Part shown: in pieces, positions 15,481 through 41,677 of the stretch
Numbering within the stretch: the first letter of the stretch is position 1
Layout: each line of letters begins with the position of its first letter
Origin: Girardia tigrina
Taxonomy: Eukaryota
Length of the DNA stretch: 52,116 nt
Assembly (NCBI GenBank): GCA_001938485.1
Contig: MQRK01229041.1
Span: 1-52,116, forward strand
Direction of reading: 5' to 3'
Position numbers and translations under genes: made by a program
The notes under the pieces: generated by a model
What the model saw: only the letters and a program-made list of their open reading frames with translations
Database searches by the model: none
Told to the model about the DNA's origin: nothing

Positions 15481-15761
15481 TTCTTTGCTGCATCTAACTA
15501 AATTTGCCGTGGAGAATATGTTAAACTCTAAATATTATTTTTATATATAGAAAGAAACTTCATATGCAAATTTATATTACAAAGGTTTTCAGTTATGTTT
15601 AACAAAACAATAACAATTGATTTTAAAAGGTAAAATAATTTTACAAATAAATTTTTATGTTTTGGGTTGGTAACTAAGTAATTGGTGATTTCAGTCATAG
15701 ATGTCTCTCACTCCGATTTTTATCATATACGTAAATGTTATGAACTTATTCTTCTTTTACT

Positions 15762-17783: not shown

Positions 17784-17785
17784 TA

Positions 17786-18170: not shown

Positions 18171-19638
18171 GTTTTAATTTAGTTGTAGAATATAAATTTA
18201 AAAAACGTTTTGGATAATAAATATATGAATAAAGTATGAATATTTGTAAATTCTACTTCCTTCTTGGATTGCTGAACAAATCCAACTAAGTAGAAATAGA
18301 TCGATTTTGGATCATATTATAAAATTTCAAGATAAATATAGTAATGGTTGCAATAGATATTAATATTAAATATTATTATTACGAAGATAAATAAATGAAA
18401 AGTATAACTACGTCAACAAAAACACAACATTATTTGGTACTCACATATTAACTTCACCCCTGCAAAACTCTTCTGCACGAAGTTATCTTTTGGTTTCCTT
18501 GTTATCTTGTTTCTTGCTGGTTTTTGATCCCATTTTTAGTGCTACGAAAATGCTTATTTAGGATATGCAAAAAACAGAACAAGATGCAATTTTTTTCTCA
18601 TGAGCGAAACATTTTACCTAAAAAATTGCCAAACAAATAAAATAGTAATAGAATGATTTATTCATGATAAGGTTAATCATACATACAATTTTATTGATCC
18701 GGATGTAGGATTTCATACAAACAGTTGAGAGAGAGTGTGGCAGTGCAGAATGGAGGGACAAGACACATGGGGGCTGCGAGACATCATTTAGAATCTTATT
18801 TATCAGAGGTTTTAAAAATATATCAAAAATCATTAACAATTACATGAAGAAAACATAATTCTTTTTTGATAGTTAATCATTTTATATCTGAAAAGGTGAG
18901 ATGATTGTAACTTTTAATGATGGTTATACCAATCATTAGGTTGTATCATAAAAAATAAATCAGTGGTCCATTTATTATAAAGAGATATGTTTCATTTGGA
19001 CGTATAAGTTATCGGAATGTATCATTTAGTATGTAGAGTCAAGAATTCACTAGTAAAATTGCTATTGCAGCCCTTGGATGTCAACACAAGAGCGGGTACC
19101 CTATGTTCATCGAATGTATAATTGATATTTCTTTACAAATATCTTCTTAAACCTATTACAATGGGAAAACAATTTTGAGTTTAAACCAATGATAAATAAT
19201 TCAAATAAATACGTCTGTGAGTATATTGTTTGTAGGAGAATAATTTTATTTTATTGTCCATTTTATTTACCCTCAAAACAGACGGGTGTTTATACTAATG
19301 GAAAAATATTTTATTATTATTTTAAAATACGTTTTATAACTGTTAGAGCTTAAACTCATATTATTTATGTATACCATTACAAAATTAATTAGTGCAATAA
19401 TTTTTAAGTACATAATCGTTGTGGCTATTGTTCAACAAAAACAATGACAGCATTTTAAAAAACAGCTTTAAATGATTATTCTTTAGAATACTCGCCATTT
19501 ACTTCATACCTTGCATCCCTCTGAATTGGCAATCTTTCGATTGTAAAGACGAAGAAGTTGATGTTCCTAGAGACTGGTGTCATTCAAATGGTGGCAAAAT
19601 TTGTAAGCGACCAAATTTCCTGCCTTTGAATAATATTA

Positions 19639-20850
19639 TTAGGTTGGAAACATAGTTCTCGAACAAATTTTATTACAACTTTTATATACAACGAAACAAT
19701 GCAGAAAAAGGCATATATCAATCATCAATGAAATCACCGTTATTTTCGAACACTTGATTTCAACGACGGCGTAAATCATGGATACCTTTGTTGTAAAATT
19801 CAACTGGTTTGCTTTTGAGGAAGTCTCCAACAGCAGCTTTCAATTCATCATCCGTTGTGAACGTTTGCCACTCAAGAAGTTCTGCAGTGCCTGAAATAAG
19901 TAGTAGTCTGTTGGTGCCAGGTCGGGCGAGTATAGTGGATGTGGGAGAACTTCCCACTCCAGCTCCAGAAGTTTATCACGGGTCAGATTGGCAACGTGTG
20001 GTCAGGCCTTGTCATGAAGAAACATGACATCAGTCAATTCTGGTCGTGTTTGTACAATCACGTCTGCCACCCGTTACAGTTGTTGACAGTATAATTTGGC
20101 GTTGATGGACTGATTGCTTTCCAACATTTCCCAGTGAATCACGCCCTTTGCATCCCACCAGACACAAACCATGAGCTTTTTTTGATGCAGGTCGGCCTTT
20201 GCCTGAGGTTATGTAGTTGTAACCTTGTCTGTCCATCTTCTTCTGCGTGTTATGTTCGAGTACATACATCATTTCTCATCTGCAGTAATCAGTTTGTTCA
20301 GCCAATCTAAATGACGCTTCTTGGACAGTAGTGTCGTGCAGGCGTCTTTGCGGCGTTGACGATATAAGTGGGTTAGTTGGTGTGGGACCCATACGTACAG
20401 TTTGCTGACTTTGCCCATTTCCTCCAAGTGATGCAAAATGGCAGTATGGGTCAGGTGTGGATCACTTTCGACACAAGCGCAAAAACGGTCATTGTCAATA
20501 AGTGAGGGTCGACAACTCCTTGGCTAATCTTTGAGATCGAATTGACCACGCTGAAACTTCTTAAACAAATCATAGGCTGTACGATGGTCAATTGTGCAGT
20601 CTCCAAATGCTTGGTTGATACGACGTTCCGAGTGACCAGCCCGGACTTGTAATCATACAGTAACATAAAACGTCGCTGTTCAAGAGAGATATTTGAAAAT
20701 TTAAATATCTGAAATTATGAAAATATACAATTAAAAAATATTGCATTTACTTATATATAAATCAATAAAGCAATACATGTATATTTTTGCATTGTTTCGT
20801 TGTATATCATTGTTAATAAAAGTTGTGCGAGAACTTTGTTTCCAACCTGA
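19639..20850 (-). mobile_element. Complete but multiply frameshifted mariner with ~80-bp inverted termini
   Basis: TA|TTAGGTTGGAAAC... and ...GTTTCCAACCTGA|TA. Decayed transposase motifs MLLYDYKSG, WVPHQL, ITADEK and HDKA.PH. Confidence 0.92.
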
Positions 20851-20869
20851 TACATTATAAATGTCAATG

Positions 20870-21520
20870 TATAGGCGCTTTTGGCGGAGAATATGATCAT
20901 TGAGAAAGAACTCGGAAGATTTGGTGATAGATGCTCAATGAGTGCCGAGAACTATCATAGAAGAAGGCAATATTGTTCTTTTTATGTGATCAAATCGTCG
21001 TGATTGCTGCATGAATGAGGCCAAATTGAGTAAAATAAACATTGCTGTTGATACTTAATTTCAAATGCTTCATTCTGTCAAATACAAATCCTGTGGTTAT
21101 AACTTCACATGGGATGATTTATATTCTTTTCCACCAAAGGAATAACTTTGCCCTTTCAAAGTAAACGTCTTTTGATATTTCGTTTTGATAAAATTCCAGG
21201 AAAACCAAAACTATTTTTCTTTTGACGATAAATAACAATCCTTCTCGGTGACGAGATTATTTAGCAACAAAGTTAAAAACGTTGACACTTTCGGCTATGG
21301 GGTCATGACCATGTTGATTTTAACCATTCAGTCAGTTCCCATACTTTTTTAAGCTTTTTGGCACGACGAATAATGAAAGGATAGTCTACAGTGATTTCTA
21401 CGACCAAACTTAATGTTGTTAGGCTCTTGTCTGCTTTTAAAGCTGTCAGAAGTGCCTGATCGTCAATATGCAGGGGTGGATTTATTTTTTCTTTACCTGT
21501 GATTTTATGAAAAAAATGCA
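20870..21520 (-). mobile_element. Highly degenerate mariner fragment
   Basis: PLHIDDQALLTALKADKSLTT...LKKVWELTEW, plus downstream decayed mariner-like stretches. Confidence 0.55.
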
Positions 21521-21559
21521 ATAATTATTCATTACTAATAAGAAATTTAAAAAATAATG

Positions 21560-22975
21560 GCAAAATTTTATAATCAAGAACGCCATTGAAATCAAATTTT
21601 ATTGTCGCAATATATTTCGGTGGATTTTTCATCATCTTCAGGCTGAATTAACAACAATTTCGCTGTCTTATATATAGCCAATTGATGATTAAGCAAACAT
21701 CTTTCGTAATAACTAATTAAATATTTTCAACAAATTGGAAGAGAGACTTGTTTGGACATTAATGGACGGATTAAGTGATTTAATCAATAATGATTCACAA
21801 GTAACTCTTTCCCAATAATTTTTAAAATTACTGCACAATATTTTAAAATTAATTGTTTTCACCTCCGATTTACAACCATTCATATGTCCAGCAATATTAC
21901 TCCCATCACCCAATCGTCCATGCTCCTGAATCCGTTTACAGAGATGACGAGACGTCTCTCTAATGTATGTAGCGTTGCATCCATTCCACGAAAATTGATA
22001 AACCAGATTGGAACATAAACTCAAAGGAGTACGAGATTTATTGCTGAACATACTTTGATTTTTGTAAGATTTAGAAATGATTTTTAAATTCAAATTTTTA
22101 CTATCGATTGATTTTAAAATAGACGATTTAATTTTCTTGTAACCTTCTGAATAAGGAACGATTAGCGTATATCCAATATTAGAATTTTCATTAGAATTTT
22201 CATTCGTCTTTACCTTCATGCTCTTTATTCATTAATTTATCTATCGTCTCATTAGTTAGTTTCTCTAAAAATGATTTCGAATAGCCATTTTTCTGCAATA
22301 GTTCTGTTAGTTTATCTATGCTTGCATCTGCTTTTTCATATGTTGATGATAGAGACCAACACCTAAATAACAAACCTTTTATCATACTTCTATAATACTT
22401 AAGTTCACAGAAGCTTTTAGTAGTAGTATATAGCCCTGTATTTGTTTTTTTCTATAAATCTCTGTCTCGTAACGACTCTCTTTTCTCTATATTAACAAAT
22501 CTAAAAATGTTAAAACACCATTCTTCTCAAGCGCAACCGTGAAAACAATATTATAATGAAGAGAATTCATATAAGATAAAAACGGCAACATATTTTCACG
22601 CTCTTTGACGACAAGGAAAATATCATCAACATATCGTTTATAAGCTAAAGGTCTAACAACCGTGAACGAATGAATTTGATTTTCAATGTTAAACAGAAAA
22701 ATGGATGCAAGTGTTGGTGCCAGAGGGGAACTCATTGCAACACCATCTACCTGTTTATACCAATTAGCATTAAACAAAAAATGAACATTTGGTGTTGCAA
22801 AAGTAAGTAATTCACGAAAAGCAAACTCATCAAGACTATCATGCTTACCACTATTACATTTCCAGAGATCACAACACAGATCAATTGTTTCCATCAATGG
22901 GACATTGGTAAAAAGACTTGCAATGTCAAAAAAAACCATGAATTCATTTTCATTACCCAAATCAAAGTTAGATAT
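21560..22975 (-). mobile_element. PLE: RT + GIY-YIG endonuclease + 3' pLTR region with hammerhead
   Basis: RT motifs FDIASLFTNVP, YKQVDGVAMSSPLAP and YKRYVDDIF. GIY-YIG LVYQF...CNATYIRETSRHLCKRIQEH...ESLLIK..PSINVQ. Frameshifted and 5'-truncated. Confidence 0.95.
21601..21650 (-). ncRNA. Minimal type I hammerhead ribozyme (PLE-associated), helix II mutated
   Basis: The minus strand reads TTCAGC-CTGAAGA-T-GATGAAAAATCCACC-GAAA-TATA-TT-GCGAC-AATAAA. Confidence 0.72.
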
Positions 22976-23251
22976 AAATTTTTTATTGTTTTATTTTTAA
23001 ATAAGCATTTATTTTTTGATAGTTTTCTTTATAATATCATTTTTATTTTTGAAACATTTGTATTTATTTACTTTTTTTAAAAACTCTCAAATTAAAAAAA
23101 AATAATAAATAATTTTGGCGAAATGCAAATTAAAATTAACTCCTCACAATGTCTACAAATTTCATACTTGCAACTTAATAATTAAATTGTTTCAAATTTT
23201 GAATTAATTATTTGAGAATGTTTCTTGAATATCAATTTAGAACTACAATGT

Positions 23252-23400
23252 TGTTAAGAACATTTCCCATGAGTTCGACTCTTCCTGTCATTTTCAAAAT
23301 TCGAACACAACTTTAAAATTCTTATTATTTTCTTAATTTTATATTTTTTTCTATATTGAACTATATTATAACCAATAATTAAAAATATTCTCGTAGCACG
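23252..23400 (-). repeat. Partial LTR of the TGTGAGG...CTTAAYA family
   Basis: Begins TGTTAAGAACATTT, the reverse complement of the family's LTR end. The other end was not found. Confidence 0.4.
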
Positions 23401-24162
23401 GATGAAGCTGAAAAGCCTTGAGTTTTTGACAAACTGGAGATATCATAAATGACTTTGATTTTCTTTCTTTTTATCTTACACAATTATTATTTTAATGTAA
23501 ATTATTACATATATAATTTTTTCTTTTGTTTTGAATTTCAGAGAGATTTATCATTAAAGAGATTACAATTAAATATAAATAATATAAAATAAAAAAATGA
23601 TAATATTTTTTTATTAATAAAGAATAATGAAACTTTATTTATTAATTGTTTATTTATTTTTCTTTCCCATTTCTCTTCCTCTTGTCCAAGAAATGTAATT
23701 CTTTATTCTTAACAATGTTGTTTAGAAAAAAAATTTATTGCGTGTTTTCGTTCATTAGTTGCACAAATTATTCATTTTCACTGTCTACTAAAAACTGGAA
23801 AAATTTATTTTTCATTTACCATTTAAATTGCTTATTAGACCCACAGAGCCATTATAGTTAAATTTCATTACTGAATTGATGGCGACACAGTCTAATGAAA
23901 ACATAATAAAGAAAGAAATTGAGTTTTTCCCAGTATTTTCAGAGAAAAAATATTTAAGAGAACCGGAAAACGTAATATATTTTACAATTATTTTCTTTGT
24001 CTCTCACTGGTTGAGAAGAAAAATAAGAAATATGTTAAGAATATGGAACAAATGAAGCATTAAAAAATTGTCACAAAGTAATTGAAATAATAATTTGCTT
24101 TTGAATTTTATTCTTCTTACTCAATGTTGTTTTCGGAAAAATGTATAGATTTATATTTTTAA

Positions 24163-24225
24163 CACTAGAACTGCCAACAATTTTTATATACCTATTCTAC
24201 TAAACCGGTCATTTTGACCAGTTTG
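24163..24225 (+). mobile_element. piggyBac-like single terminus
   Basis: TTAA|CACTAGAACTGCC followed by the subterminal palindrome CCGGTCATTTTGACCAG. No partner end seen. Confidence 0.45.
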
Positions 24226-24844
24226 ATATTTGGGAATTTATATAATCTAAAATATTATTTAATACATTTTAAGAGGTGTTTGTAACATCAATTTTATAAA
24301 TCATTTTTTACTCAATTTATACATTTATTATGAACAATATTCAAACAAATTTTCAATTGTTTTCTTAATTTAATAATTAGTCTATTTATTATTATTTTTT
24401 CCAAATTCTCTCTATTTTCTAAATTATTTTTCATTTTTTTAAAAATTTTAATCAAATCAAAATAATATTTAATTTTTAATTTTGCATTAAAAAACATTTT
24501 ATAATATTTTTAAACTATTTGAAATTTTTGAAAATACTTTATATATTTAATATTCAATTTTTTATATTTTAAATACATAACTTTTTAATCATATCCTCAA
24601 TTTAATTTAAAATTTGAAAAATAAATTTTTACAAATATTAATAAATTTTTTTAATAGAATTCAAATTTTGACTAAAATTAATAATTTTAAAACTACTTAA
24701 TCAGATCGGTTTTGATCAACTCATAATTCTACTAAAATAATATTTCAATTCAAATTAATTTATATATTTCAAAGAATATTTTCCAATTGAAATTTAAGTA
24801 TCGCTCTAAGTACTAATTTTAAAATTTTTTAAAATTATATTAAA

Positions 24845-25330
24845 TTCCTTCAGTTTTTCCACATTTCGATCATAGAATTTTCCATTTTCATGTCGCAATC
24901 TGTATCTTCTGTCATGTATTTTCTCAATTATTGTGTTAAAGTCCTTCGTATTTGTTTTTTTTCCTGTAATTCGGGTTCGACCTTCACAAGCACACCATCT
25001 CCGATCTTGAACTGTCTCCTGGCAGGTATCTCTTCGATATCGGTGTTGTGATTCATTTTTATTTCTCGACTATGCCATCTTTCTTTGAATATTCTTTTAC
25101 CGAACATAACTTTCGCTGGGCTCTTTCCTATTGTCTTCTGGAATGTTGTATTTAGTGTAAATTATATTTCTGGTAGCAGGATTTCCTAATCAGTCCTTCT
25201 TTTCTTCGCAGTTACGCATTTAAATATTCTTTGGTGGTACATAATTGTCTCTCTAGTATCCCATTCGAGTTGTGATGGTATGGGCTCGAGTAACACATTT
25301 TTATATTAATTGATGCTGCCATGTCTTTTA
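24845..25330 (-). mobile_element. Ty3/gypsy integrase remnant, related to the 1705 element
   Basis: Manual translation gives SSPYHHNSNGILERQ, LNTTFQKTIGKSPAKVMFGKRI, FKIGDGVLVKVEP and IHDRRYRLRHENGKFYDRNVEKLK. Not in the ORF track. Confidence 0.85.
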
Positions 25331-26706
25331 TTATCTTCGATTCGAATTTCTTGCCTCAATCTGTATGTTTTTCTTTCGATGTACTAATTGTTTGTAATTA
25401 CTTTTTGGTGTATTTTTATTTAGCTGCATGGCAGAACATCTGAAACTGTTCATATATAAATATAAACTCCTGTGATGAATCCATAGTTTGTCAAAATTTA
25501 ACTGAGATATCCGTTTTATTTGGAAATTACTTAAATAAAGTAAAAGGTGAATGTTAAGCACTTTAATAAATATTTTTTTCTATAAATAAAAGAAAATGAA
25601 AGAAGACAATTGGAATCCCTGGATTATAATTGTATTTATTTTTAAACCACAATTAAGAGAAGGATAAAACGAGAATAACCGTTTAAATGGTCCCTTTAAA
25701 ATTGGTCGCAAAGAAGAAAAAAAATAAGCAAATAGCTGACGTACTCCTGAGCTTGTTTTTCAGGAAAATTTAATTGATAAAATGGAAAGAATTAAAATAA
25801 ATTTTAAAAGGTAAATGACGATTTAATTTTTTTTAGAAATTTTTTAACATACTTTTTTAATTTTAATATAATAATAACTTTGAAAAAAAAACAAAAAAAC
25901 AGGTAAAAATTTTTAATTAATAAATTATCTTTTGTTAATTGATTTATCGTTTTTTTCTTGTATTCCTCTCTTTTTTTTAGAATTGAAAAAAATATTTTTT
26001 CCAAATGATAATTTTCCATTATTAGAAAAGAAAACGAGAGAGAGAGAGGGGAAACATTAAAGTCTAAATTCTTTGTAACATCTGAGAATGTAAAAGAAAA
26101 TTTAAAATTTAGCAAAACAAACAATTTAGATTGATTTTTCGATTGTTAATCAGACAAACCATTAACAGATTATGAAAATTAAAACAAAAAAATTCCCAAA
26201 AAAACACTCAGGAGATTGAAAATCATTAATGTTTATTGAAATATAATGAAAAATACATTTTTATGCGATTATTTCCATTATATTCCATGTATAAATAGAT
26301 AATTCTCGTTACTTTACTTCCACATCAACCTAATTAATGCCCGATTTTTCTGGGGCAAATATTAAAAAAAATAGAAAAAAAATGTAATATTACATGCGAT
26401 AATGGAGAAATGGAAACGAGATTTTAGAAGTTTTTTTTCAGTAATAATTATTAAAAAAATAAATATTTATTTTTTTTCTTAAAACGATTTTCTAATTGTT
26501 TATTCACGATTTTTTTGTTTTTTCGAAAATTAAATATAATTAAAAAAACTGTTTTTTTAGTTAAAGAAAAAAACTTATTAAAATAAACAATTAAGATATA
26601 ATGGAAAACATTTACGAAGTGAGATCAACTTTATTTAAAAGAAAAAAAAACTATGGCAATAATCTTTCAAGATTTACTTAAAACTTTGTGCAATTAACTT
26701 AGCTTG

Positions 26707-27204
26707 TGTTAAGAGCACTGACACAATTACTATGCAAGCATTTATTAATAACACATTCAGAGTGATCAAAACTCTCAGAAGTTCCTTCATCATTTGTCAT
26801 CATTCTAATTCGAGTTGTTTCTAAATTATTAATAATCATTATTCGAATAAATTTCATAATTTTTCAATAACATTTATTATTATTTTAACTTTAAAATATT
26901 TCAAAGAATTATAAAAAATAATGAAACAAATGTATATTTATTTAAACCACTAGAATGCCTTTAATTAAAACATTAAATATGTTTATTTTACTTTGGAAAA
27001 ATAATAGAAATTACCTGCATAATTATCTTTTAAATTTATATTTTATCAGATTATTAAATTTTCATTAATTTAAAAAATGTACATTCTGTTCGAATGATCA
27101 GTTTTTGCTAATACAATAAATCATCAATTTTCCAACTGGGTCGGAGAATCCGAAATTCCCGTTTCAAACAACCCGTCCATACACAATTTAAAATATTCCT
27201 CACA
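26707..27204 (-). mobile_element. Solo LTR (498 bp)
   Basis: Ends TGTTAAGAGC...AAAATATTCCTCACA, the reverse complement of the family termini. Near-TSD GCTTG/GCTAG. Confidence 0.8.
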
Positions 27205-27333
27205 GCTAGGAAGACGTAATGGAAATCATTTTTCATTATCTTATATTCCAGTGGAACTGTGCTATAATTTGTATTTAAGGAAAGTAGTTCATCTCCAAAA
27301 GTATAACATATTTTTGTCCATTCATTTTAACAT

Positions 27334-27753
27334 TATTAAGAGCATTAATTGGGTTTTTTTACATTTATTAATATCACAATTTTAATTGCCACTAGAACAA
27401 TTCTCCGTAAAACTTGCGTAGCTCGTCATCGTTCTTGATTGATAATCTTTAATAATATATTTTAACGTCTTATTATTCAAACAAATTTAAATTACAATTT
27501 AATTATTACAAAAATAATTTATACTTTAATTTTGAAATAATTTTTATTTATTTTAAGAAAATATTATTAAAATATTATTTATGAAATATTAGTTTAATTT
27601 TAAAGTGATTATTTAAATTTTAATAATTGATTAAACCACCAGACGTTTTAAAATATTTAAGATATTAATCTTCTATCTGGGTGGGAGAAACACAATCCTA
27701 AAACAATATACCAAACAACACAAAATAAACACCATTCAAAAATATTCCTCACA
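27334..27753 (-). mobile_element. Solo LTR (420 bp) with perfect 5-bp TSD
   Basis: AACAT|TATTAAGAGC...AATATTCCTCACA|AACAT. The core ATCTGGGTGGGAGAA is shared with the 1705 LTR. Confidence 0.88.
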
Positions 27754-29189
27754 AACATGTTTGAGTACGTGGAAATGACTGTGGAGACTAAATATTTATT
27801 TTTAAGAAATATCTCCAAGATTTATTTAGAGATGTTTTTCTTTCCTTCATGGTCTCTTCTCATGAGTATATTCAATCAGTCTCCGATTCAGTGACGATTT
27901 TACTAAGACACAAATGAATGTTTGATTTGATAACTAAAAATTGAGAATCTTTTATGTAAGGAGAAGAGAACCGTTTTTATACATCTTTTACATACCTTTC
28001 TTTACCGCGCGTTTGATATCATAATATAGGTAGGTAATCTGCTAATCTTCACAAGGTCTTCCGATTTCTGTAATTTGATTTTTTGATTATGCCAGAGAAT
28101 ACGTTCCCAAAAGCGTTGACTTTTCCTCAGAAATTTTCATGTGCCTTCCACTTGTTTAATATTGAATACTTTGAATTCTTCTAACTATTCAGTGGTTTTC
28201 TTTTATAAATTTTAGCCTGGGAAATACAATAATTAATATTGTTTTGTACATAAAAACTAAGCATAAAGTATCATACTTATCCCAATATTTTTATTATAAT
28301 ATAACAAAACTTATTAATTAATTATAATTAAATAAATTATATTTCACATATTTATTAATGAAGCAAATTATATTATGTATATTATTTATTAATTTCTAAA
28401 TTAATACTTAATGTTAATTAATTAATTCTTAATACTTAAAAACTATGTTATATAAAAATTACCATTATTATAATTAAAACAAATTAAGTAACTGTTTTTT
28501 TTGTAATAAATGATCCATTTAAAAGTAATATTTATTAATTTAATAATTATAAAATATAGTAGAAAAACATATTCTTCTAAATAATTATAATTTACATTTT
28601 ATTTCATTTTTTAGATATATTTAATGAAAATGATCCTTTAAATGTAACATTTAAACTTGTAATTATTTTTTCAAACTCGCTTTTTAAAATGATATTGAAG
28701 CGGAAAAAAATGAAGGGGATTGACCAAATTTTACCAGCTAAATAAAATCTGATAATATAGTTCAAACAAAAATAATTTGTCAAATTATTTTATCCATTCT
28801 CAAGACTAATATAAAATCAATCTTAAAAAATAATAAATTAAATTAAATAAATAATAACTCCATAGGACATAAATTTTTTACTGGCTCTAAACTAAGATAT
28901 AGAGCTTTTGGAGTGGATGAAAAAAATGTATACATATAGTATTCTGCGTCCTCTAGTTTTTGAGTTATTTGCACAAATGCAAAAAATGCATACAATTTTT
29001 TTATATTTAAATAACATTTTTACTGCAACTTATTTTTTATATATGCAATTGATACTCACTTTTTTTATGTAAGTTAACACCTGTTTATTCGCATTCTTAA
29101 TCAGCTTATTTTGATTTAATATATTTACTAATATTTTTAATATTAATATTTTTAGTTTTGTTGGAGTTTTATTTAATGGTAGATAGAGA

Positions 29190-30370
29190 CTTAAAGAATG
29201 ATTCCAAGAACTTTTGCTACATATGCGGATCACACATGTTCAAAGAATCCATTAATCCCATATGTCCACTTATCAGAATTGAATACTTCGACTATTTTAA
29301 AATAAAAATTAGAGGTCAAGAGTAACCCTTCGCGCCTCATTCTGTTTGTAAGGAGTGCGATAGTAATTTGCCATGTGGTCGGCGAAAAATTAAATAGTTA
29401 ACCGTTTAGCACCCAAATGGCCAGGTGAGAATAGAAAAATTACATCGACGATTGTTATTTTTGTATGACAAATATTCTTGGTTTTAGCAAAAGGACAGCA
29501 AAACACATTGTCTATGCAAATTTAGAATCAGCTATTCGTCCTATTCTTTATGAAATAAATGAAGAATCCCCTTTGCTTCCGAAACAGATTGTTGAGGAGG
29601 ATCCTAGTCCTTCTGAGTCTAACTTATTGAACGTAGGAGATGAAGTAGAGCAAGCTCCTAGTAATATTAACTATTAGCAGCTTAATAAGTTAGAAAGCTT
29701 GAAACTATCTAAGAAACAGACTTGCTTAAGGAATTTGACGTTTCAGATTTGGAGACGAAGTTTGCGTTTTATAAGGATAGAGACTTACTGTTCAAGGATT
29801 TTTTTCAACAAAGTGATTAGAATGGGTTTCTGTATTGCTATGATATTCTGGGACTCTTGATGAAGTTTGGCATTCAAACTGACGTAAAAAGAGACTGGTT
29901 GATATTCATAGACGGTAGTGTGTCGAGTGTAAAAGCTGTATTGCTACATAGGAAAAAAGTCTTTCCGACAATCCAAGCAGGGTATTCCAGTGCGGTAAAA
30001 GAGTCATATGAGACTATGAAATATCTGCTAGAACAATTACGTTGAGCAAAATTTATTATATATTATTATGAATATTAACAGGCTTCCAAGACGGATTTGA
30101 AAAGTAGTGCTGTTTTTTGTGCCAATGGGACAGCAGAGCAAGAGCACAATATTATTCTAGAGACTCCTGGCCAGTTCGTCAAAAACAAGCCCCAGAAGAA
30201 GCCAACATACAGCATGAAAAAAATTATTACATGAACTTAACATAAAATTAGGACTATTCAAGAATTTTCTGAAGGCTCTAAAAGGAGATTGTGAGCCCAT
30301 GGCTAAACTGAAAGAATTATTTCCAAAACTCTCAGTAAACAAACTAAAAGATTTAAGATTTAAACATTTA
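29190..30370 (+). mobile_element. Degenerate DNA transposase, probably CMC-Chapaev(3)-type
   Basis: Ordered motifs NFCYICG, APHSVCKEC, DDCYFCMTN, YANLESAIRP, FIDGSVSSVKAVLLH, KESYETMKYLLEQL, CCFLCQWDSRAR, NIKLGLFKNFLKAL and LFPKLS. The family label is from memory of these motifs. Confidence 0.7.
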
Positions 30371-30429
30371 TGAAATTTAAACATAATTTTGATACATGTT
30401 AGTTGAACAAAAAAATACAGTCTTAATCC

Positions 30430-31490
30430 AAAACACACTTGAAAAGTAGATTACATTTATTTGGCAATGGAGATGATGGCACCTTGCCTTTATATTAAAA
30501 ATTTGCCTTTAAATATATATGATATTCAAACGAGGAGATTTTCCCGATCATACAATAATCTGCATCCCATTAGAATTGAACCAGCCCTGTATAAGTTTGT
30601 AAATGGGGGCAGGAGCTAAATCTTGTTAAAGCACACTACAATTTGAATCACACTACTTATTTGTAATTTTCAATTAATGATGTTAAGTTGTGGTTGACTG
30701 TGGTTAAACATGGTTTGAATTGCAGAGAACATCACCATGACTTTGGGAAATGTTTGGCGGATAGGATTGTGTTATGAGGTAAATATCCAGGGTAATTTGG
30801 TCACTTTTCAAAGTTGACGAATGAAGCAAACTGATAAGATATTCATACCTCAGATAAATCTATTTTACACCAATCATTGGCAAAAAAATTGTGATTTTGT
30901 TTGCAAAATGTAAGTAAATTGAATCACAGTGCACGATTTAACCCCATCTGGCTTTTAACAATATTTTTTCTCCGATTTCCTTCTTATTATTCTTGTACTC
31001 TTTGCACTCGGTGTGTCACTTTCATTTCCAGATTTTAAATTTTAAATGTTTTGTTCCAGTTCGGATGATAGATGAATCACGTTGTGGTATTATTATTTTA
31101 AATTTTTCGACCGAATTTTCAGCATCGGATGAGTCTATGAACTTTAATCACTTTATTATATTTGTAATTTCTCGCAGCGGTGACCTATATTTTGGTAGTA
31201 CTAAGAATGAGCCCACACAATCCTGGTTCAATATGCTTATTCCTTACCAATTATGTCCAACAATAATTAAAAGCTTTTAATAAATTCTGACTGACTCTTT
31301 AGGGGTTTCACCTGAGAAGAACAAAATGAAATGAGTTTAATTTATGAATTTTACAAAGAATATCATGATGATCTCTAGATTACTAAACATTTCAGTAGTT
31401 TTATTTCAATATTATTCTAAGTACTTTCTAACATTGGAAATAAATCAGTGACAATAACAACAATATTATTTAGTTACAAACGGTGCCACA
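30430..31490 (-). mobile_element. Possible LTR-retrotransposon gag/pro remnant
   Basis: The minus strand has PBS-like TGGCACCG near 31485 and FSGETPKESV (gag-like). Otherwise heavily decayed. Confidence 0.3.
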
Positions 31491-31495
31491 TTATA

Positions 31496-32671
31496 TTAGG
31501 TTGGGGAAAAAGTAATCCATTATTTTAATCCATTATTTTAATTCATTATTTATCGATCAAACAATTTCAAATTTATACTCTTTGTCAAGGTAGCATTTCA
31601 CAGTAATTTCACAAAAAAATTTTTTTAATCAGTTCTGAGTTATACGGTGTTAAAAATGGAAGTCAACAAAGAAAAAATTCGGTACATTTTACAGTTTTAT
31701 TCGATAAAGGCGAAAATGCAAGCCAGACGGCAATTATTGTGAATGGTGTTTATGGTGCAAATACTGTAACAGCTAATTACACGCAATTTTGGTTTCGTCG
31801 ATTCCGTAGAGACATTTTTGATGTTAAAGAGGCACCTCGCACAGGCAGGCCTATCGTTGAAAATGTCGATAAAATCTCGGTAATGATCGAAGTTGACCGG
31901 GATGTTAGTAGTCGTAGCATCGCACATCAATTAACACCAAAACACATGATGGATCGAATTTCCATCTGCGAAGCCTTGGCCAAACGAAATGAAATCGACC
32001 CATTTCTTAAACGGATGGTTACTGGGGATGTAAAATGGGTCACATACGACAATATTGTACGAAAAAGATCGTGGTCAAAGCACGGTGAAGCACCTCAAAC
32101 GGTCACCAAACCAGGACTAACGGCTAGGAAGGTTCTACTGTGTATTTTGTGGGACTGGAAAGGAAATTTATTATGAGTTGCTTCCGTATGGCTAAACACT
32201 AAATTCAGATCTGTACTGTCAACAACTGGACCGTTTGAAGATAGCAATTGATGAGAAACAACCAGAATTGGCCAACAGAAGAGGTGTTGTGTTCCATCAT
32301 GACAACGCCAGACCACATACGTCTGTAGTGACTCGCCAGAAACTCAAGGAGCTTGGTTGGGAAGTTTTAATGCATCCACCATATAGTCCGGACCTGGCAC
32401 CAAGCGATTACCACCTTTTCTTGCAAAATTTCCTGAGTGATAAGAAATTTGGATCAATAGAAGATTGTGAAAATCGATTACTACAGTTTTTCGCCAATAA
32501 GGAAGGACCAAAACTTCTACGAGAGAGGCATTATGAAGCTATCTTCAAAATGGCAAATAATTATACAACAAAACGGTGTGTATTTGACTCGATGAGGACA
32601 ATCCAAAACATTTTAAATAAAGTTTTTTTAATTTCACACCAAAATAATGAATTTCTTTTTTCCCAACCTAA
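31496..32671 (+). mobile_element. Mariner (mellifera-subfamily-like), both TIRs, internal deletion
   Basis: TA|TTAGGTTGGGGAAAAAG...TTTTTCCCAACCTAA|TA. ATG at 31656 starts MEVNKEKIRYILQF. Motifs VTGDVKW, HDNARPH and HPPYSPDLAPSDYHLF. The second HTH and WVP are missing (SSRSIA|HQLTPK). Confidence 0.95.
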
Positions 32672-33049
32672 TATTTTTAAACAAATGTATTTTCAAGAAT
32701 TATTCAATATAAAAGTATTACATCCAATTGTAAAAAAATATATATTTAAATAAAGTATAAATTAGATATATTAATTCAGTTATAATTAATTTTCCTTACA
32801 TTTATTACGAAAGACGAACTTCAAATGATGATAATTCAGCAAAATTTGAAAATGACTCTTTGACCCAATCTTTTTGGCAATAAGTGTAAGTAGCAGATTA
32901 AAAACTGTTTTATCTATTTTGAGAGGAGAACTTTTACTTGGCATGTAATTGAAACTGTTTTGACATAATACCTATGTCGAAAATAATTTCCCTAAATGTT
33001 CTTTACACATCACATTATAGTAAATTCATAATCTATTTGTCATTTTAAA

Positions 33050-33200
33050 CCTCTCTCATTCCACGTCTATTTAAATGTGGTCCAACATCACCAAAATGTT
33101 GTTCTCTATGATACTTAGTGTTCATAGTGTTACTAAAGCATTCTATAAAATATACAAGCAATTGACATATTCTTTGAAAAGTAATACCACCTCAATTCTT
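33050..33200 (-). mobile_element. Possible LINE (L2/CR1) ORF1 esterase remnant
   Basis: Minus-strand HREQHFGDVGPHLNRRG resembles the SGNH C-terminal DGxHLNxxG motif. Nothing else is recognisable. Confidence 0.25.
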
Positions 33201-33294
33201 AAAACATTTAATTAAATAAAATAGTTTATTATTTTACTATTTTTTGATATTTAATTCTAATTATTTTGTAAAAATGTATAATTGCTGATGATAT

Positions 33295-33670
33295 TGTAAG
33301 GAAACATAAAAAGATGTCTTATGGATTATGTCAGTAATATTTGTTAGATGTTTGAAGGAGGAGTGAATGATGCTGGAGAGTTGAATGCAGGATCTTTGAA
33401 TGTGTTTATATAAGAACGACGTTGGAATAAGATCTCTCTCCGAAGATTAATAGAGATGCATTGTTCTTAAAAGACATAATTAATTGTTGAAAAATGATTT
33501 TTAAAACAAATGTAACCAGAAAGTTAAAAAATTAAATTTTTATATCAATTCTTTATGCAGACAGAACACTACTTTGACAAAAATGTTTTTAGAATTCAAA
33601 AAATATTTATTAGAAAAACACAATAAAAATCAATATAAACTACTTATAATTTATAAGTAGATATCTTACA
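33295..33670 (+). mobile_element. Candidate solo LTR (376 bp) of a second family
   Basis: TGTAAG...CTTACA inverted termini, internal TTTATATAAG and AATAAA. TSD not clean. Confidence 0.6.
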
Positions 33671-33739
33671 ATTAATATTGTTCAGGAACTCCGAATTTTC
33701 CGTTTTTTTTCTCATTTTGGAATCTTAAAAAGTTAATTT

Positions 33740-33885
33740 CGATCAACTTTTTACATAATCATTTATTGTCATCGAGAATAAGTAAATGTGCAAAGTTTGA
33801 AGAAAATCGATTTAGTAAAAAGCCTCCAAAAAACAGGTTTATGTATGTATATAGAAAGTAAGCTAATAAAAAGAATGTTAAAATG
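33740..33885 (+). repeat. Second copy of the Helentron-like repeat end
   Basis: TATTGTCATCG...AAAGTTTGAAGAAAATCG...GAAAGTAAGCTAATAAAAAG..TAAAA is homologous to 17600-17783. Confidence 0.45.
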
Positions 33886-36002
33886 AATTTTTGTGTAAAT
33901 ATTTACAAATTAGGCGAATCTTTTAAAATTAAAAAGCGAAGTACACATCATGCCTCAAAAATTAATTTATGGCCATTCATGTAATATTAGAAAAAATGCA
34001 TGGAGAACAATTCGTCTTTTAATATGCTTCATAGATTTTATTTTCTAAGATGTTTTTATTAATTTATTAATTATTTAATGTTATAATAGCGTTTTTATAA
34101 TTTTGTTCAGTTTTTTGTTAACTTGTCCAAAAGTGCAAAAAATGTAATTAAACAGGATTGTAAAATTTCAATAAAGGAATTAATGCTCAATTAATTCGGT
34201 AATTGTTATGAAAATAAATATTATTAGTTAAAAGAGAAATAATTTTAAAAATATTAAAAAAAATAAAAAGACGTAAATTATTTACTTGAGAGAATTAAAA
34301 TCCCATTTGAAATAAATTACAATTTCCTAAAAAAAATTAATATTAAATATTTTTTGTTTTTGATTTAATCAACCATTTTATTGAAATTAATTACAAAAGT
34401 AATTTTCAGTTAAAATTTTTTTTTCAATATAAAATACAAATTAATTAATAAATTAATTTAAAAAAATATTTTTTTTATTTTGTTAATTTAATGACAAAAA
34501 ATTCATATGCATGTCTTTATTAATAAAATATATAACTAATAATTAAAAACTTTTTTCTTTTATTTAATTTAAATTATCTTGGATAATTTATAAATTCGTA
34601 GAAAAAAATTTTGTTTTTAACAAAAATCAAAAGTAAAATTAAAATAAAAGAATTTCAAAATATTTTATAAATATTTAACCATTAATGAGTAAAATAAAAC
34701 ATAACCGAACTAATAATTATAAAAAAGAAGATAAAAGGAAAAGATAAGAGAGAAAGATGATATTTGTTTTGATTGTTTCTATGTTTAACCGGATCGCGTT
34801 TCAAAACTATTATTTCTACTTTTTACAAATTATTTTCTTTTACAAATAAGGAACAATTTTTGTGAATAAATATTTACAGCGGACATTAAAGAAGCAACAA
34901 ACAGATTTGTTTACGAACATCGAAATATGATAAGAAATATGTTTTTATCAACAAAAAAAACTAATTCGATCAAGAAATTAGTTGAAACTATAAAATTAAG
35001 CAAAATTAAAAAGAAAAATATAATAAAATTACTGTTTAAAGTAATTAAAAAATAAAAGTAATAAACAAAAATATCAAAAAATAAATTCCTAATACTGTTA
35101 TAGTTTCTTTGCCTTTTTCCATTTTTTTTTTAAAGAAAACATGATTTTAATAATTTAATAAGATTTTTAAATTGATAATTTTCCTTTTTGTAGCAAAATG
35201 ATTATAACCTTAAAAGAACCCCTTGTGCAAGAAAAATCTTCCTTTTGTACTTCTGTTTTTATAAAGGTGTAAACTGATTTTGTAGATAAAGTATTATGTT
35301 TCTTCAATCTGTTTTATTTTAAGAATGCCACTAAAATCACTAAATTTGGCCAATTTTTACCACTTTTAGAAACAATCTTTTAAAAACTAACGGAAACCCT
35401 CCAAATTTCTTCTTCTTCTTCTTTTGCAAAAAATTAAGATTTTAATAATAAGATTTTAATAAAAATATTTCTATATATCGACACTTTTAAACGCTTTTTC
35501 TCAACAAATTTTTTTCTCAACATAATCGATTTTTGTTGATATTGTTCTTAGTTTTTGAGAATTTCAAAAATGTTCGAAAAAATCGATTTATCAGCACTTT
35601 TTCGAAAATGTTGACATGGAATCTGAATGCACATATGTGGGTTAATATTCAAGTACATCAGCACTTTTTTGATATTATGTTTCCTTGTACCTTTAAAATC
35701 AATGTGCACTTTGTGTAAATTTACACATTATACTAATTATAGAGAAAAGTAATCAATATATGAAAATTTGAATTGCATATTCAAATAGAGAATCGAAATG
35801 TGCATCAAGCATACGATATCGATTTTTGACAATGGTACTTTTAAAAAATTTGATGCATTGATTTTTGCACTTTTGCACATGTGGAACTTAAAAGCACTGT
35901 GCTAACACATTAGAAATGTGTGACAAAATGTGCACTATCGTGCACTAATATTGATTAGCACCTCTGAGCACTGTGCAGTGATCGGTTAGCACTTTTTTCT
36001 AC

Positions 36003-36336
36003 GATCCTTAGTTACGGGTGACGGTTGCTATGGATACGAAAACCGTAACCATGGTTACAACCGCCTTGGATCACTGTATACGTTGCTAATGAAAAACGTC
36101 CTTTGGTTACCGTTACTATGGTAACCGTGACCTTGGTTACCGTCACCAAGTGGACCGGAACGTTTGCTACCGTTGCTATAGTAACCGAGACCGTTGCTAG
36201 GGAGCCGACGACCAATCAGAAGCGTTGCTAAGGTGATCGCGACCGCTACCATGGTAACCGCGACCGTTGCCATCGTAACCGCGCGGTAAGTAGTTACGAC
36301 ACCCCCGGGGGGGTGGGGCCGAATGCCCATTTTTCC
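36003..36336. promoter_or_regulatory. Phased array of 14-bp imperfect palindromes matching the RFX X-box, with CCAAT box and GC-rich cap; probably a mobile-element terminus
   Basis: Units at 36024, 36045, 36082, 36097, 36112, 36127, 36142, 36157, 36172, 36193, 36224, 36245 and 36266 (e.g. GTTACTATGGTAAC, GTTGCTATAGTAAC, GTAACCATGGTTAC). CCAATCAG at 36212. The array itself is certain; its regulatory function is inferred. Confidence 0.6.
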
Positions 36337-36800
36337 TTTACTAATACGTTGTCGTTTGTGATCATCAGTCATTTGATAAGGCACCCAGATGCTCAAAATC
36401 TTTTTTCTGTTCAAATTTTCATGGAGGTTTGTCCTTATTGATTCTTTGTTGACATCAAGCATTTCACTTATGTGTCTTAAAGACATTCTTTCATCCTGCT
36501 CAATTATGTTCCTAACTTTTTCAATCAAATCATCAGTTATTGTTGCTGAAGGGCGTCCACTTCGTGGGTGATCGTCCAAAGATAGCCGCATGCCTGAGGT
36601 AAAATCAGAGAACCAGTTTCTTATTGTGCGTTTCGTTGGACAATCATCAGAGAAGGCATTGAACAACTTTCTATAGGTTTCAGATGCAGTCATTCCATTT
36701 TTCCACTCAACGAATGCATAGAATCGACTGTTAGATTTTGAAAACTCCATTTTTTGCGACAACCTTTTAAATCCAATATGAAAAGTGATCATATGACACA
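36337..36800 (-). mobile_element. Mariner 5' fragment, interrupted by the palindrome array
   Basis: MEFSKSNSRFYAFVEWKNG...WFSDF..G..SLDDHPRSGRP...SIWVPYQMTDDHKRQRI, then an abrupt switch to the array. Confidence 0.88.
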
Positions 36801-36868
36801 AATTAATATATATATATANNNNNNNNNNNNNNNNNNNNNNNNNNNNNNNNNNNNNNNNNNNNNNNNNN

Positions 36869-36907
<39 letters not shown>

Positions 36908-39756
36908 TGATTTTTTTGCCAAAAAATATTTATAAACATGAATTAACAAAAAAATAGCATTAGAATGGTAATTTTCTTTCTTATTTAAAAGTGGAGAGTA
37001 ACGGAAAAAAGGCCATATTAATATAATTATTTTAATTTATATCGGTTTAAGATTTATAAAAAAATCGTTTCTCAAGAAAAATAATAAGTTTGTTTAAATA
37101 TTAGATTTAGCATTTTTTGGGTGGTTTAATCAATATTAAATATTGATTTAAAAATTAAAAATTTAAAAATACATTGAGATGAGTTTTCTTGGAAACCACA
37201 ATCAGCCAACCTTTTTATCAATCAAATCATACAATATCCAACCAGCGAAAAAAAGAAACCCAATTTTTTTAGTCAGTTAATAACGAATTAGAAAGGAATT
37301 CGCATTGACAATAACTTTTCCCAAATTCCAAATCATTTACTGTTTAAAGTGCTCTATCGTTTTCTTTTTTATATTAGAAGAATTTACTTATGTAATAACG
37401 CTTCAAAAAAAGACAATCCAGGCAATCTCAATAAACAACGAATAATATTATTCAAGTCCGACGTCATCTTTTAAGTCAAAAACAAAGAAAAATTATTATT
37501 CGGTTATTGACTTATATGCGTCATTTGTTATAGTTTTTCTTTTTGTAATTAAATATCATTTCCACTCCCGGATTTGTTATTTCGTTTATTCTATCATATA
37601 AAAGTAGCCTCAGGTTCACCTTATCTGAACTTTAGGTTACTTTTACATTGATTTATATAACACAATACATGTTTTAAGCTAATTTTTGAGGAACAATTTT
37701 TCTTTTGCCCAAACAATTTATACATAAAGGTAATATAATATAAATCCGAATACTTAATTTATTATTTCTTGTTTTTGGAATTTCCACAATTAGTTTTAGA
37801 ACATTTCTTTTATTAAAATTTTATTCCTTTAAAATTCTTTTATTAAATTCGTTTTAAAAAATCTTCATTTCAGAAATATTTTAACAATAAAGCTTCGATT
37901 TTAATTTTTTTTAAAAAAAATCTTCGACTGAACTTATTCTTTTTTATTTATAAAATATTTATAAAAAATTATAAAATCTTAAATCAAACTTTTCATTTTT
38001 ATTTTATATTTTCATAAAATTTGCATTTCTATAATAATGTTTCAATTTTATATATTAATACATTAATACATTAAAAATACATTAATGTTTAATCATTTTA
38101 TACATTAATTTAAAAAATTTCAATCCTAAAATTTTCCAATGTTTTAAATTTATATTAATAAAATTCAAAATTTGATGTGAGCTCCTAAAATCCTAACATT
38201 ATTTTTTGACATTAATTGTTTAAATTAAGGAATTTTTTACTGATTTTAAAGGAAAAAACATTTTTTGATTTTTTTAAAAATGTTTTTAAAAATAATATAT
38301 TTTTAAAAGTTTTACTAACCAATCAAATTTTTTTAAATGTTTATTTAAATGTTAAATAAAAGTCAATTTATTTAAATTTATTAACCGATAAAATATAAAA
38401 TTATTTTTTTCAAATATTTTCCAAATTCAAACTTTTTAATTTCCATAATAAAAAAATATTCTAAAAAAATAGAAATTCTTGAAAGAACAGTTTGAAACGT
38501 TCGGGAAAAAACATTATTTATTCTCATTTTTTAATGCATAATATCACATAATGATTAATTATTAAAACAAAACATTTTCTCCACTGAATAAATTTACGTA
38601 TTCGTTTTTACTTGTGATGCTTGAGGAATTCTAGTTGCGCGAAAATTATTATTTAAAAAAATATTTATTAACAGTGAATATATTTTGTTTAAATCACACG
38701 TGGAATTGATGATAAATATAGATAATGAAGAAAACGAAAGTAAATAATATATGAATTATAATTATAATTATTATATAAAATATTCTTCTTTTATCAAATA
38801 TTCAAAAGACGTTTTGTGTGAAACATCACTTGAGAAATAAAGGATTTGTGTTTTGCTAAGGAAATCATTGGCGATTCGGATTGAAACCTGTTTATAAAAA
38901 AATGATAAAAAATTTATCAAATTATAATATTTTTTATTTATTCTTTTTGGGGGGGGACTTTGTTAAATCCTGTAGAATTTCCCAGAAGGTTTAAATCAAC
39001 TTCTTGAAAGATGATTAAGTTTATTCTCGTTTTTTTTCTTTCCTTTGAAAATGTGAGGCAGTCATCATTGATGTTTAGATAACTTTTTTGAAAGACTCAT
39101 TCTAATTTCGAATATTGGCAGAAATTAATAGAATCAAAATTACATTCAAATTCCATAAAAAGTGAAAAAATGCCAATTGTATCCAATTTACTTCATAATA
39201 AAAAATAAAGTCAAAACAAGAAATTATTTTATTTAAACATTCAAAATACGTATACATACAATTTACACACGATACATTTAAACAACGCGAAGGGTAAACA
39301 GATTCTTTTTTCAAAAAAATGTTTTTACAAAAAATAATTTTTATATATATATATATATACAAAAATTCATACAATGCATATATATATATATATANNNNNN
39401 NNNNNNNNNNNNNNNNNNNNNNNNNNNNNNNNNNNNNNNNNNNNTATTTGAATAAAAAAAGTTTCCTGAAAATTTAATTTTTAAATATGAACTTTTAATC
39501 TATATGTCCAGGCTGACATATAGACTGATCTGTTGAATGAGTCATAAACATTATTAAGACCCCTAATTGGATTTTCAATACAAGGACAATTCTCCCCAAA
39601 CCTTTTGTTACTAGTCATTATTTTTGATAAATTATTAATTCCATTTTTAACGTCTTATTATTCAAACAAATTTAAAACACAATTTATTTATAATTCGATT
39701 TAAAATAATTTATAACTGAAATTATAAAATAATTTTAATTATTTATTTTATTATTA

Positions 39757-40221
39757 AAAAGTGAACGCCATTTTTCACAATTTATTTTCGTAATTAATTT
39801 CGGCGGATTACCCGCCATCTTCAGACTAAATTAACACTGGCTTTTAGCAGCTTATATATGAGAAAAGTGATTATGCAATCAATCATGTAATAAAGGCTCT
39901 ATTTGAAAATGTTTAACAGAGAAATTGAGTGCGAAGTTTGGATATTAATTTTTGGATCCATGGATCTTATTAATTAATGATCTTATTAAATTATGTTCGG
40001 CAATATTGCTCCCATTATCCAACCGACTATGCTCTTTGATCCGTTTGCAGAGATGACGAGATGTCTCTCCAATGTATCTGGCGTTACACCGATTACATGT
40101 ATATTTATAAACAAGATCGGAGCACAAACCGAGAGGAGTGGGAGATTTATTACTGAACATATCACGAATTTTTATGATTGGGAAATAATTTTTAGATTCT
40201 TGCCATTATTTTTTAAATTCC
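39757..40221 (-). mobile_element. 5'-truncated PLE (GIY-YIG + 3' end with hammerhead)
   Basis: LVYKYTCNRCNARYIGETSRHLCKRIKEH...LIRSMDPKINIQ. Probable TSD TTATTTATTTTA(A)TTATTA at 39739-39756 and 40222-40240. Confidence 0.9.
39785..39830 (-). ncRNA. Minimal type I hammerhead ribozyme (PLE-associated), intact
   Basis: The minus strand reads TTTAGT-CTGAAGA-T-GGCGG-GTAAT-CCGCC-GAAA-TTAA-TT-ACGAAA-ATAAA. Confidence 0.85.
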
Positions 40222-41677
40222 TTATTTATTTTAATTATTAATTTAGTTTTAAAGTAAGTTATTTAAGTTTTAAAAATGATTGAATAATCTGATGTTTTAA
40301 AATATTTAAAATATCAATCTTCTATCTGAGTGGGAGAAACGAAATCCTAAAACATCATACCAAACTACCAACAATAAGCACCATTCAAAAATATTCCTCC
40401 CTGGCATTTTGAGTTACTGTTCTTCGTACTTGGTCCATTTCAAAATTTTCAATAGATATTTTTGCTTGGCTAATCTTAAGTTTTTTTTAAAATAGCCAAC
40501 AATAGGTCAATTTGTTTAAAACAAAAGAAATTTATTTTCAAAATTCAATAAATCACCTGAAATATTTTTCAAAAATTAGTCGACAAAATATAGATCATTT
40601 CAAAAAATCATTCTTCAAAATTCACTTTAAATACATTTGTTAAAAAATTAATTCCATAGCAAAAATCGGTCAATATTCAATTAGATTACATAAATTCAGT
40701 CAGTCGTTTTAATCGAAAAATTAATAGTGCAAAAATAAAATCAGCATTGCTGAAAAAAATAGAAATTTTCTCGAGCAAAATCACATTTGTAAAATCGTTC
40801 AAAAAAAGTGATTTTAAAAATCACCAACAAGTTTTCTTCTGACGAAGCTCACTCTGATTGGTTCACATCCTCAAATATTTTCATAGATCAGTATTCACAC
40901 TGGCTCAATGAGTCATCAGACAGACAAACCAATAGTAATGTTGTTAATAATAACAATATGATTGCTTAGAGAACTCACACATTTGACAGAACATTTATTA
41001 CATTCACAATTTCGATCATCTCTATGACAATCAATAGTATTGCTTTTGCTTAAATTCATCACTGAAAGTTTAATACTTTTCATCCCAAATCTGAACTACC
41101 TTGAAAAGAACTATTTTATTTAAAATATTTAATTTAAATTTTATTGGTTAAAATAAAATTACTTTAAAATCATTTAAATTATTAATTTGACTTAATTATT
41201 TAAAATTTACAAAAATAAAACTATTTAAAATTTCCAATAATTATAAATTAAAAATTTGAATATTAAATCTAAATTTAAATAAATTAATTTCAGATTAACA
41301 GAATTAAAAATTAATCATCCATCTGATTAAGAGAGGTACAATCCAAAATCAATACACAACATTTAAATACAACATTTAATTTAATATTTATCTATCAGCA
41401 TTTATATATCAATATATTATATTTCAAACCGAAGCAGCAAACAAGTTAGTGCATTGTCCTTTGAAATCAAAAATGCAAAAGAGAATTCAAATTCAAACAT
41501 CAAACTTTATAACTTTATTGAATTTCTTATCAAACTATATTGATTATTTTTTGCCTAGGAGGAAAGGGAGTCTTGAGTAATAAAATAAAAACAAAAATTT
41601 AACAAGTATAAATATAAATTATTCAAATTCCAAAATAATCATAATAATTGTTATTTATTATAATATTATTTTTCTAG

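Follow-up and report, generated by a model that had tools for sequence, protein, structure and literature searches.

X-box-like palindromes and a CCAAT box in a probable mobile-element end, tentatively of Helitron type, within a predicted cadherin intron of Girardia tigrina

The question raised by this locus of Girardia tigrina is how a GC-rich island of short palindromes, which resemble the X-boxes bound by RFX proteins, came to lie in a predicted cadherin intron, and whether the host or a mobile element makes use of it. The window analyzed here (the whole stretch of 52,116 nt, positions 1–52,116 of contig MQRK01229041.1 in assembly GCA_001938485.1) is AT-rich, eukaryotic and rich in transposon remnants, with a GC content of 27.6%; an A/T content of >70% is given for Schmidtea in the accessible part of a published report (PMC11410931). 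The island, of ~340 bp, exceeds every other 300-nt stretch of the window in GC content (52%). The first-pass annotation had described it as a GC-rich, helically phased array of X-box-like units with a CCAAT box, situated at the end of an inserted element. Its description as GC-rich is borne out, and all 12 strings that were quoted from it are present, once each, with the ten 14-mers and CCAATCAG where they had been placed and a run of C and G at 36302.

Cadherin-repeat exons lie on the plus strand at ~5.7–6.1, 41.7 and 44.0–44.5 kb, and the PDB chains nearest to the 44-kb piece are those of CELSR1 and protocadherins. Splicing from a GT at 6111 to an AG at 41677 would connect two cadherin-repeat exons in frame, in phase 0 and across 35,567 nt; two further frame-compatible GT/AG pairs lack comparable context. 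Judged on these features, a giant cadherin intron around the island, as proposed previously, is plausible.

Several other repeats are present in the window. Unrelated mariner copies or remnants lie at 31493–32674, 19637–20852, 9263–9817, 16132–16503 and 51199–52108, two of them with inverted-repeat pairs. Direct repeats at 1705–2194 and 3165–3666, 92% identical over ~505 nt, surround retrotransposon-like ORF remnants and are read as a deleted LTR element, while 38-nt inverted repeats at 49799–49836 and 50829–50866 (97% identical) flank a gap of 848 N, and this pair (49799–50866) is probably an unassembled TIR element. An element at ~17610–17780, which contains an 8-nt microsatellite in seven copies (17699–17754), presumably resembles a non-autonomous Helentron/DINE, and we take the remnants at 36–503, 21713–22990 and 49107–49427 to resemble a Penelope-type reverse transcriptase with a GIY-YIG endonuclease.

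Composition and registers of the array

The units of the island (Table 1) were compared with GTTRCYATRGYAAC, a symmetrised X-box consensus constructed in this analysis. Six of the 50,962 N-free 14-mers in the whole window lie within two mismatches of GTTRCYATRGYAAC, and all six are in the island; at up to three mismatches the window holds 18 such 14-mers, eight of which are inside the island. None of 1000 dinucleotide shuffles of the island reached six GTTRCYATRGYAAC-like sites (mean 0.02). Eight island sites are no more than one mismatch from RTHNYYWTRRNRAC, the consensus given in the first-pass annotation, and again none of 1000 shuffles reached eight (mean 0.30). The looser consensus of that annotation has nine exact matches in the window, four of them in the island, and the published form GTNRCC(N0-3)RGYAAC, as it appears in the accessible text of its source, has one (PMC3414849). 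X-box-like sites are therefore enriched over a dinucleotide-shuffled background; however, the units are tandem duplicates and not independent, so that this enrichment alone is no proof of selection and no independent test of it. The earlier statement that units match the X-box consensus stands for the six of the 13 within two mismatches of the symmetrised form, but not for the three that are five or six mismatches away. At this level, the X-box likeness of the units is supported by their sequence.

Autocorrelation of the island peaks at 21, 15, 30 and 52 nt, and the periods returned by TRF are 15, 30 and 21 nt; the 15-nt register between 36082 and 36172 and the 21-nt registers noted previously are real. 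The description as helically phased was overstated. At 10.5 nt per turn, seven of the 13 units (36024, 36045, 36172, 36193, 36224, 36245 and 36266) share a phase of 0.90–1.00, that is, lie within 0.1 turn of each other over 242 nt, but the units of the 15-nt block, at 1.43 turns, do not. The phase R is 0.45 for all 13 units and 0.68 for the eight best. The phasing comprises three independent gaps (21, 31 and 127 nt), picked post hoc, and is suggestive only.

Column conservation over the 13 units is symmetric and is highest at positions 1, 2, 5, 10, 13 and 14, in agreement with the GTNRCC..RGYAAC expectation for an X-box. The flanking positions −3 to −1, which are directional and non-palindromic, are conserved in 12, 10 and 11 of the 13 units, equal to the core, as would be predicted if the units descend by duplication. 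The array arose via tandem duplication. The first-pass annotation had named an ordinary satellite or a transposon subterminal repeat as the case that would speak against its reading, and this is partly what the island is. A self-BLAST of the window revealed no second copy of the island, and Rfam gave no match in the window at gathering score and none in 35300–36400 at E values up to 1.

Table 1. Features of the island, its surroundings and the interrupted mariner copy.
Feature	Positions	Strand	Basis
Predicted phase-0 intron, 35,567 nt, of a cadherin-repeat (protocadherin/CELSR-like) gene, hosting the insertion	6111..41677	+	Predicted from sequence
Inner zone, containing the words GCACT (9 of 51 in the window) and CACTTTT (6 of 30), all on one strand	35360..36002	+	Word counts
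13 imperfect 14-nt palindromic X-box-like units, from a 15-nt and 21-nt tandem unit	36024..36279	.	Consensus scan, TRF, autocorrelation
Best sites, 0 mismatches	36112, 36172
Best sites, 1 mismatch	36245, 36266
Best sites, 2 mismatches	36024, 36045
CCAAT (Y-box-like) motif, the sole one in the island	36212..36219	+	String match; spacing in P0004 and P0006
16-nt C-run/G-run palindrome, 6-bp stem	36300..36315	.	Folding; P0006 encodes a compatible run close to its start
Small hairpin with a 4-bp stem, its end 12 nt short of the terminal CTAA; no evident counterpart in P0006	36316..36328	+	Folding
Terminal segment with CTAA at its end and T36345 next to it; candidate 3' end of a Helitron	36329..36344	+	Junction comparison
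ORF for a mariner transposase, 5' half only (136 codons, with HTH_48 and HTH_32), interrupted after ...KRQRI	36343..36750	-	Domain and protein matches
Untranslated 5' DNA of the mariner, containing a (TA)n tract and a gap of 50 N	36751..36939	-	Comparison with P0003

Junction, related copies and terminal structure

The right-hand limit of the island is set by a broken mariner copy. A mariner relative with 93% identity (P0003, one match among 133 candidates) reads QRI-ESSR where the window reads QRI-SKGK, which places the break at 36342/36343–36345; T36342 is the first base that is impossible as mariner, and 36343–36344 can be assigned to either side. P0003 also has a matching stretch ahead of its transposase, in which the (TA)n tract at the same place is shorter. 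The island had been said to end in the C/G run and there to cut the mariner ORF: the junction within the ORF is sharp, but the true break lies ~25 nt further right than that run. The 3' half of the mariner was not found in the window, and we therefore infer a deletion on the left, by which this half, and probably also the far end of the element, would later have been lost. The insertion is probably young, because the host mariner is still 93% identical to its relative.

Further copies of the element were sought with a 91-codon minus-strand reading of the island as the query against a protein set of 1.84 billion. Two proteins matched: P0004 (E 1.9e-9, 57% identity), and P0005, a long repeat protein with 34% identity that was rejected as a chance match. 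Of 71 candidates obtained with a two-row profile, P0004 and P0006 were retained, and each of the two is represented by one sequence on a single short contig. Both show a 7-residue period, as the 21-nt unit gives when translated, and matches of P0006 to the window are found in several frames; because of these two properties, they are best read as chance translations of diverged copies of the element, with no gene involved. A protein-coding gene was rejected on the same grounds, together with the lack of a conserved ORF and of a usable match in the Atlas. A plus-strand reading across the junction gave no candidate in the protein set and hence no second junction, and the terminal 24-mer had no exact match in the GTDB genome contigs.

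The spacing of sites in these copies was assessed by a codon test that is lenient, in that wobble positions count as matches. It allows 11 half-sites in P0004 and seven in P0006, compared with ~2 in shuffled proteins (none of 1000 in each case). Gaps of 21, 9, 21, 21 and 52 nt are common to the two copies. In the window, the start of the CCAAT box, read on the minus strand, is 11 nt from the preceding half-site and 20 nt from the following one; in P0004 and P0006 the compatible spacings are 11 or 32 nt before and 20 nt after, so that the 20-nt gap is also kept. CTGATTGG is compatible with the codons at three places in each of the two proteins. At the LIG peptide that they share, it would have one half-site 32 nt ahead of it and another 20 nt beyond, versus 11 and 20 nt in the window, and in P0006 a second CTGATTGG would follow at a distance of 52 nt, with a half-site 11 nt ahead of it. 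By this lenient test, the distance from half-site to CCAAT is fixed in all three copies. Fewer units precede the CCAAT box in the window than in P0004 and P0006. Unit number varies among copies, and the individual differences of P0004 from the window include some that improve a site and some that weaken one. Indels of ~51 and ~21 nt between copies were judged by eye from the peptides; their phasing is given no weight, since out-of-frame changes would go unseen and two cases do not suffice.

Inward of the array lies a zone with a different vocabulary. Between 35300 and 36002, GCACT occurs nine times (0.7 expected) and CACTTTT six times (0.4 expected), all on the plus strand, these words having been chosen after sight of the sequence. 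We assign the zone to the interior of the same element, with a putative left boundary at ~35360–35500. GTGCAC and ATCGAT palindromes are also found at 35360–36002. With a sharp break inside a mariner ORF and two further diverged copies, the island is very probably the end of a dispersed mobile element. The earlier reading as the end of an inserted element was correct in this respect, but the inner zone of GCACT words had been missed, as had the resemblance of the 3' end to a Helitron terminus.

The canonical Helitron 3' end, in the accessible parts of two sources, comprises CTRR, insertion between A and T, and a palindrome or hairpin of 16–20 nt nearby (PMC6544945, PMC8969392). At the present junction, CTAA at 36341–36344 agrees with the 3' CTRR rule in the one copy in which it is visible; it spans the junction zone, and its last two bases are shared with the target. 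The reconstructed empty site would be A|T, as T follows CTAA and the preceding A is deduced from the mariner codons and P0003, again at one junction. The 16-nt palindrome and the 4-bp hairpin, together at −9.8 kcal/mol, agree with the rule of a palindrome near the 3' end, although 25 nt separate the palindrome from CTAA and the stem of the nearer hairpin is only 4 bp long. A palindrome usually lies closer to the end in Helitrons than it does in the island. By a rough estimate, a fit to CTAA|T would arise by chance in ~1% of cases for one rule and in ~10% over the several superfamily rules tried.

Other superfamilies were compared in the same manner. No TIR partner is present in the window, where the terminal 17-mer matches only itself at up to three mismatches; the other end may have been deleted. 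Nor was a Polinton/Maverick partner end, or an ORF for pPolB or integrase, recognised in the window, in which this copy is truncated. The TTAA target of Kolobok and piggyBac elements (for Kolobok, PMC9587614, in its accessible part) is absent from the junction and from the reconstructed empty site, the junction likewise lacking a TTA or TAA target, and the accessible supplementary files of the KolobokP paper yielded only scattered single motif matches. Non-autonomous animal Cryptons, which are described in the available text as devoid of terminal repeats (PMC3212892), share with the island a short AT-rich end and the lack of a visible TIR or TSD, but no tyrosine recombinase was found here. With canonical Helitrons, as far as the cited parts describe them, the island shares the 3' CTAA followed by T, the deduced A|T site, the palindrome with its hairpin and the lack of a visible TIR; it differs in that neither a 5' TC end nor a Rep/helicase was found in the window, in the 25 nt between palindrome and CTAA, and in being represented by one junction. 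There is no ORF of >75 codons in 33000–36000, and the window contains neither the far end of the element nor a transposase of its own. Because of CTAA followed by T, the deduced A|T site, the palindrome and hairpin and the lack of a TIR partner in the window, a Helitron-type rolling-circle element is put forward as a tentative assignment, with a chance that we place slightly short of even.

Origin and possible use of the array

The explanation that we prefer, and which we regard as evenly poised between right and wrong, is that the island is a mobile-element end, probably a Helitron 3' end, whose amplified X-box cluster and CCAAT box form a platform for host RFX and NF-Y. A rolling-circle element would have inserted into the mariner copy within the cadherin intron, and tandem duplication of a short self-complementary unit would have given rise to the 15- and 21-nt repeats and, through them, to the X-box-like sites that cluster about the single CCAAT box. 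Host RFX, together with NF-Y, would use this cluster as a platform in cis, which would maintain the element in an open or transcribed state; the cluster would work in RFX-rich cells, for example ciliated or sperm-forming cells, and would be carried along by each copy. From the sequence we infer that RFX may bind the array and that such binding may be put to use.

Rolling-circle elements that carry sites for host factors are known: Helitrons of Caenorhabditis carry HSF-1 heat-shock elements as a tandem array, and the ISX element of Drosophila miranda carries MSL sites. The island would share with these a host-factor site carried and spread within a rolling-circle element and, with the Caenorhabditis case, the tandem array, but its sites are candidate RFX X-boxes and a CCAAT box, known from sequence alone. 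X- and Y-boxes co-occur, and Y-boxes are enriched under RFX1–3 peaks, according to the accessible part of one study (PMC7498320); the X–Y module seen at MHC class II promoters and under RFX1–3 peaks resembles the island in the fixed distance of half-sites from CCAAT in all three copies (lenient test), but the island is no known gene's promoter, has many X-boxes per Y-box and lies inside a repeat. NF-Y is also described as acting on LTR12 elements in germ cells (PMC11802806, accessible text). No description of an RFX-site array in the end of a DNA transposon was found in the literature that was searched, and Repbase or Dfam may already catalogue the family.

The palindrome is also found elsewhere. 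A scan of GTDB for two consensus palindromes 1–10 nt apart gave five loci (L001–L005), all with a 20–21-nt period: three alphaproteobacterial contigs and one Atribacterota MAG, of each of which 350 nt were viewed, and the eukaryote-like L003. They were rejected as copies of the element, since their likeness to the island is at the motif level only. L001, L002 and L004 each have, at 2001–2035, two perfect X-box-like palindromes 20–21 nt apart, apparently upstream of genes, which are probably operators of a bacterial regulator. L003 (WPAE01000165.1; 2254 nt, 40% GC, longest stop-to-stop frame 112 codons) is included in a bacterial MAG but looks eukaryotic. Its positions 1955–2096 include two CACGTG words, three X-box-like units spaced by 21 nt and four tandem copies of a word that we take to be the YY1 motif, and the contig is possibly another mobile-element end with arrays of host-factor sites. 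L003 hints at a recurrence of X-box arrays with 21-nt spacing among unrelated repeats of invertebrates.

The array could instead be a subterminal array for the element's own protein, in a CACTA, hAT, PIF/Harbinger, MuDR or Crypton element, with an X-box likeness that is convergent. Two motif zones at one end, palindromic on the outside and with same-strand GCACT on the inside, form a layout typical of transposase-bound subterminal repeats. Myb-type words overlap the half-sites, using the same bases (three of the ten CAACGG words in the window fall in the array), and Harbinger elements encode a Myb-like protein. Similar paired palindromes occur in the bacterial contigs L001, L002, L004 and L005, and the word is therefore not exclusive to RFX; in addition, the missing TIR would suit Cryptons, as their source describes them in part (PMC3212892). 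However, the window contains no TIR partner, the junction has neither TTAA nor TTA/TAA targets, the fixed-spacing CCAAT box points to host factors and the end fits the Helitron rule, which together leave a dedicated array somewhat unlikely. We consider it unlikely that the island is a neutral GC-rich minisatellite in a transposon end, in which slippage or rolling-circle errors multiplied one ancestral palindrome that binds nothing of consequence. The directional, non-palindromic flanks shared by the units, the unit number that differs between copies and the three of 13 units that have decayed to five or six mismatches would all be expected of such a minisatellite; against it, divergent units retain the symmetric core positions, seven of the 13 units are in phase over 242 nt and the CCAAT gap is identical in all three copies, by the lenient codon test.

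A viral origin is suggested by the use that viruses make of RFX. In the accessible part of one report, RFX1/3 bind the terminal repeat of AAV and RFX sites are present in the enhancers of HBV and polyomaviruses (PMC5760533), and planarian parvovirus-like integrated elements have been described (PMC3198968, accessible part). The island might accordingly be the terminal repeat or origin of a virus-like element, either a Polinton/Maverick or parvovirus-like (PIVE/PEVE), that uses host RFX as AAV does, and its minus-strand reading can start with AG. The AAV D sequence and the EF-C sites of HBV and polyomavirus, as given in that part of the report, share with it X-box-like DNA near a mobile genome end, but consist of one site versus 13 units, and the island has neither a viral gene nor a long terminal hairpin, its hairpins being small. 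Furthermore, the minus strand starts AGTAAA and lacks the Maverick end motif (AGT)2 or (AG)3, a definition that comes from vertebrates in the accessible text (PMC8097293). The lack of any ORF of >75 codons in 33000–36000 and a BLASTN search of 35560–36345, with only short, chance-level matches among phages (two records) and plasmids (six records), likewise make a virus-like end improbable. Lastly, the island could be a co-opted host enhancer that drives the cadherin in ciliated cells, which would be compatible with the preferred explanation. Its position is intronic, and planarian Rfx motifs mark cilia modules and NF-Y motifs neuronal open chromatin in the accessible text of one study (PMC12660999). 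However, the 93% identity of the host mariner to its relative makes the insertion probably young, and known RFX targets typically have a single promoter-proximal X-box, as far as the source seen in part describes them (PMC3414849), so that co-option at this gene is highly improbable.

The preferred explanation, a rolling-circle end with a host-factor platform, has a wider form that we regard as decidedly unlikely in full: a rolling-circle family in an AT-rich invertebrate that would carry an X-box and CCAAT module as a cassette, variable in length and phased in part, through which the family would become active in ciliated or sperm-forming cells, and that would scatter RFX/NF-Y enhancers through the genome, some of them wired to host genes, including the cadherin. 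Transposons with clustered sites for host transcription factors are a known route to new regulatory wiring. If RFX does not bind the copies, the island amounts to an ordinary transposon end that contains a GC-rich minisatellite. If RFX does bind them, the family would provide natural replicates of an X-box/CCAAT module that differ in unit number, and both the rules of spacing and a transposon origin of ciliary-gene enhancers would become directly testable.
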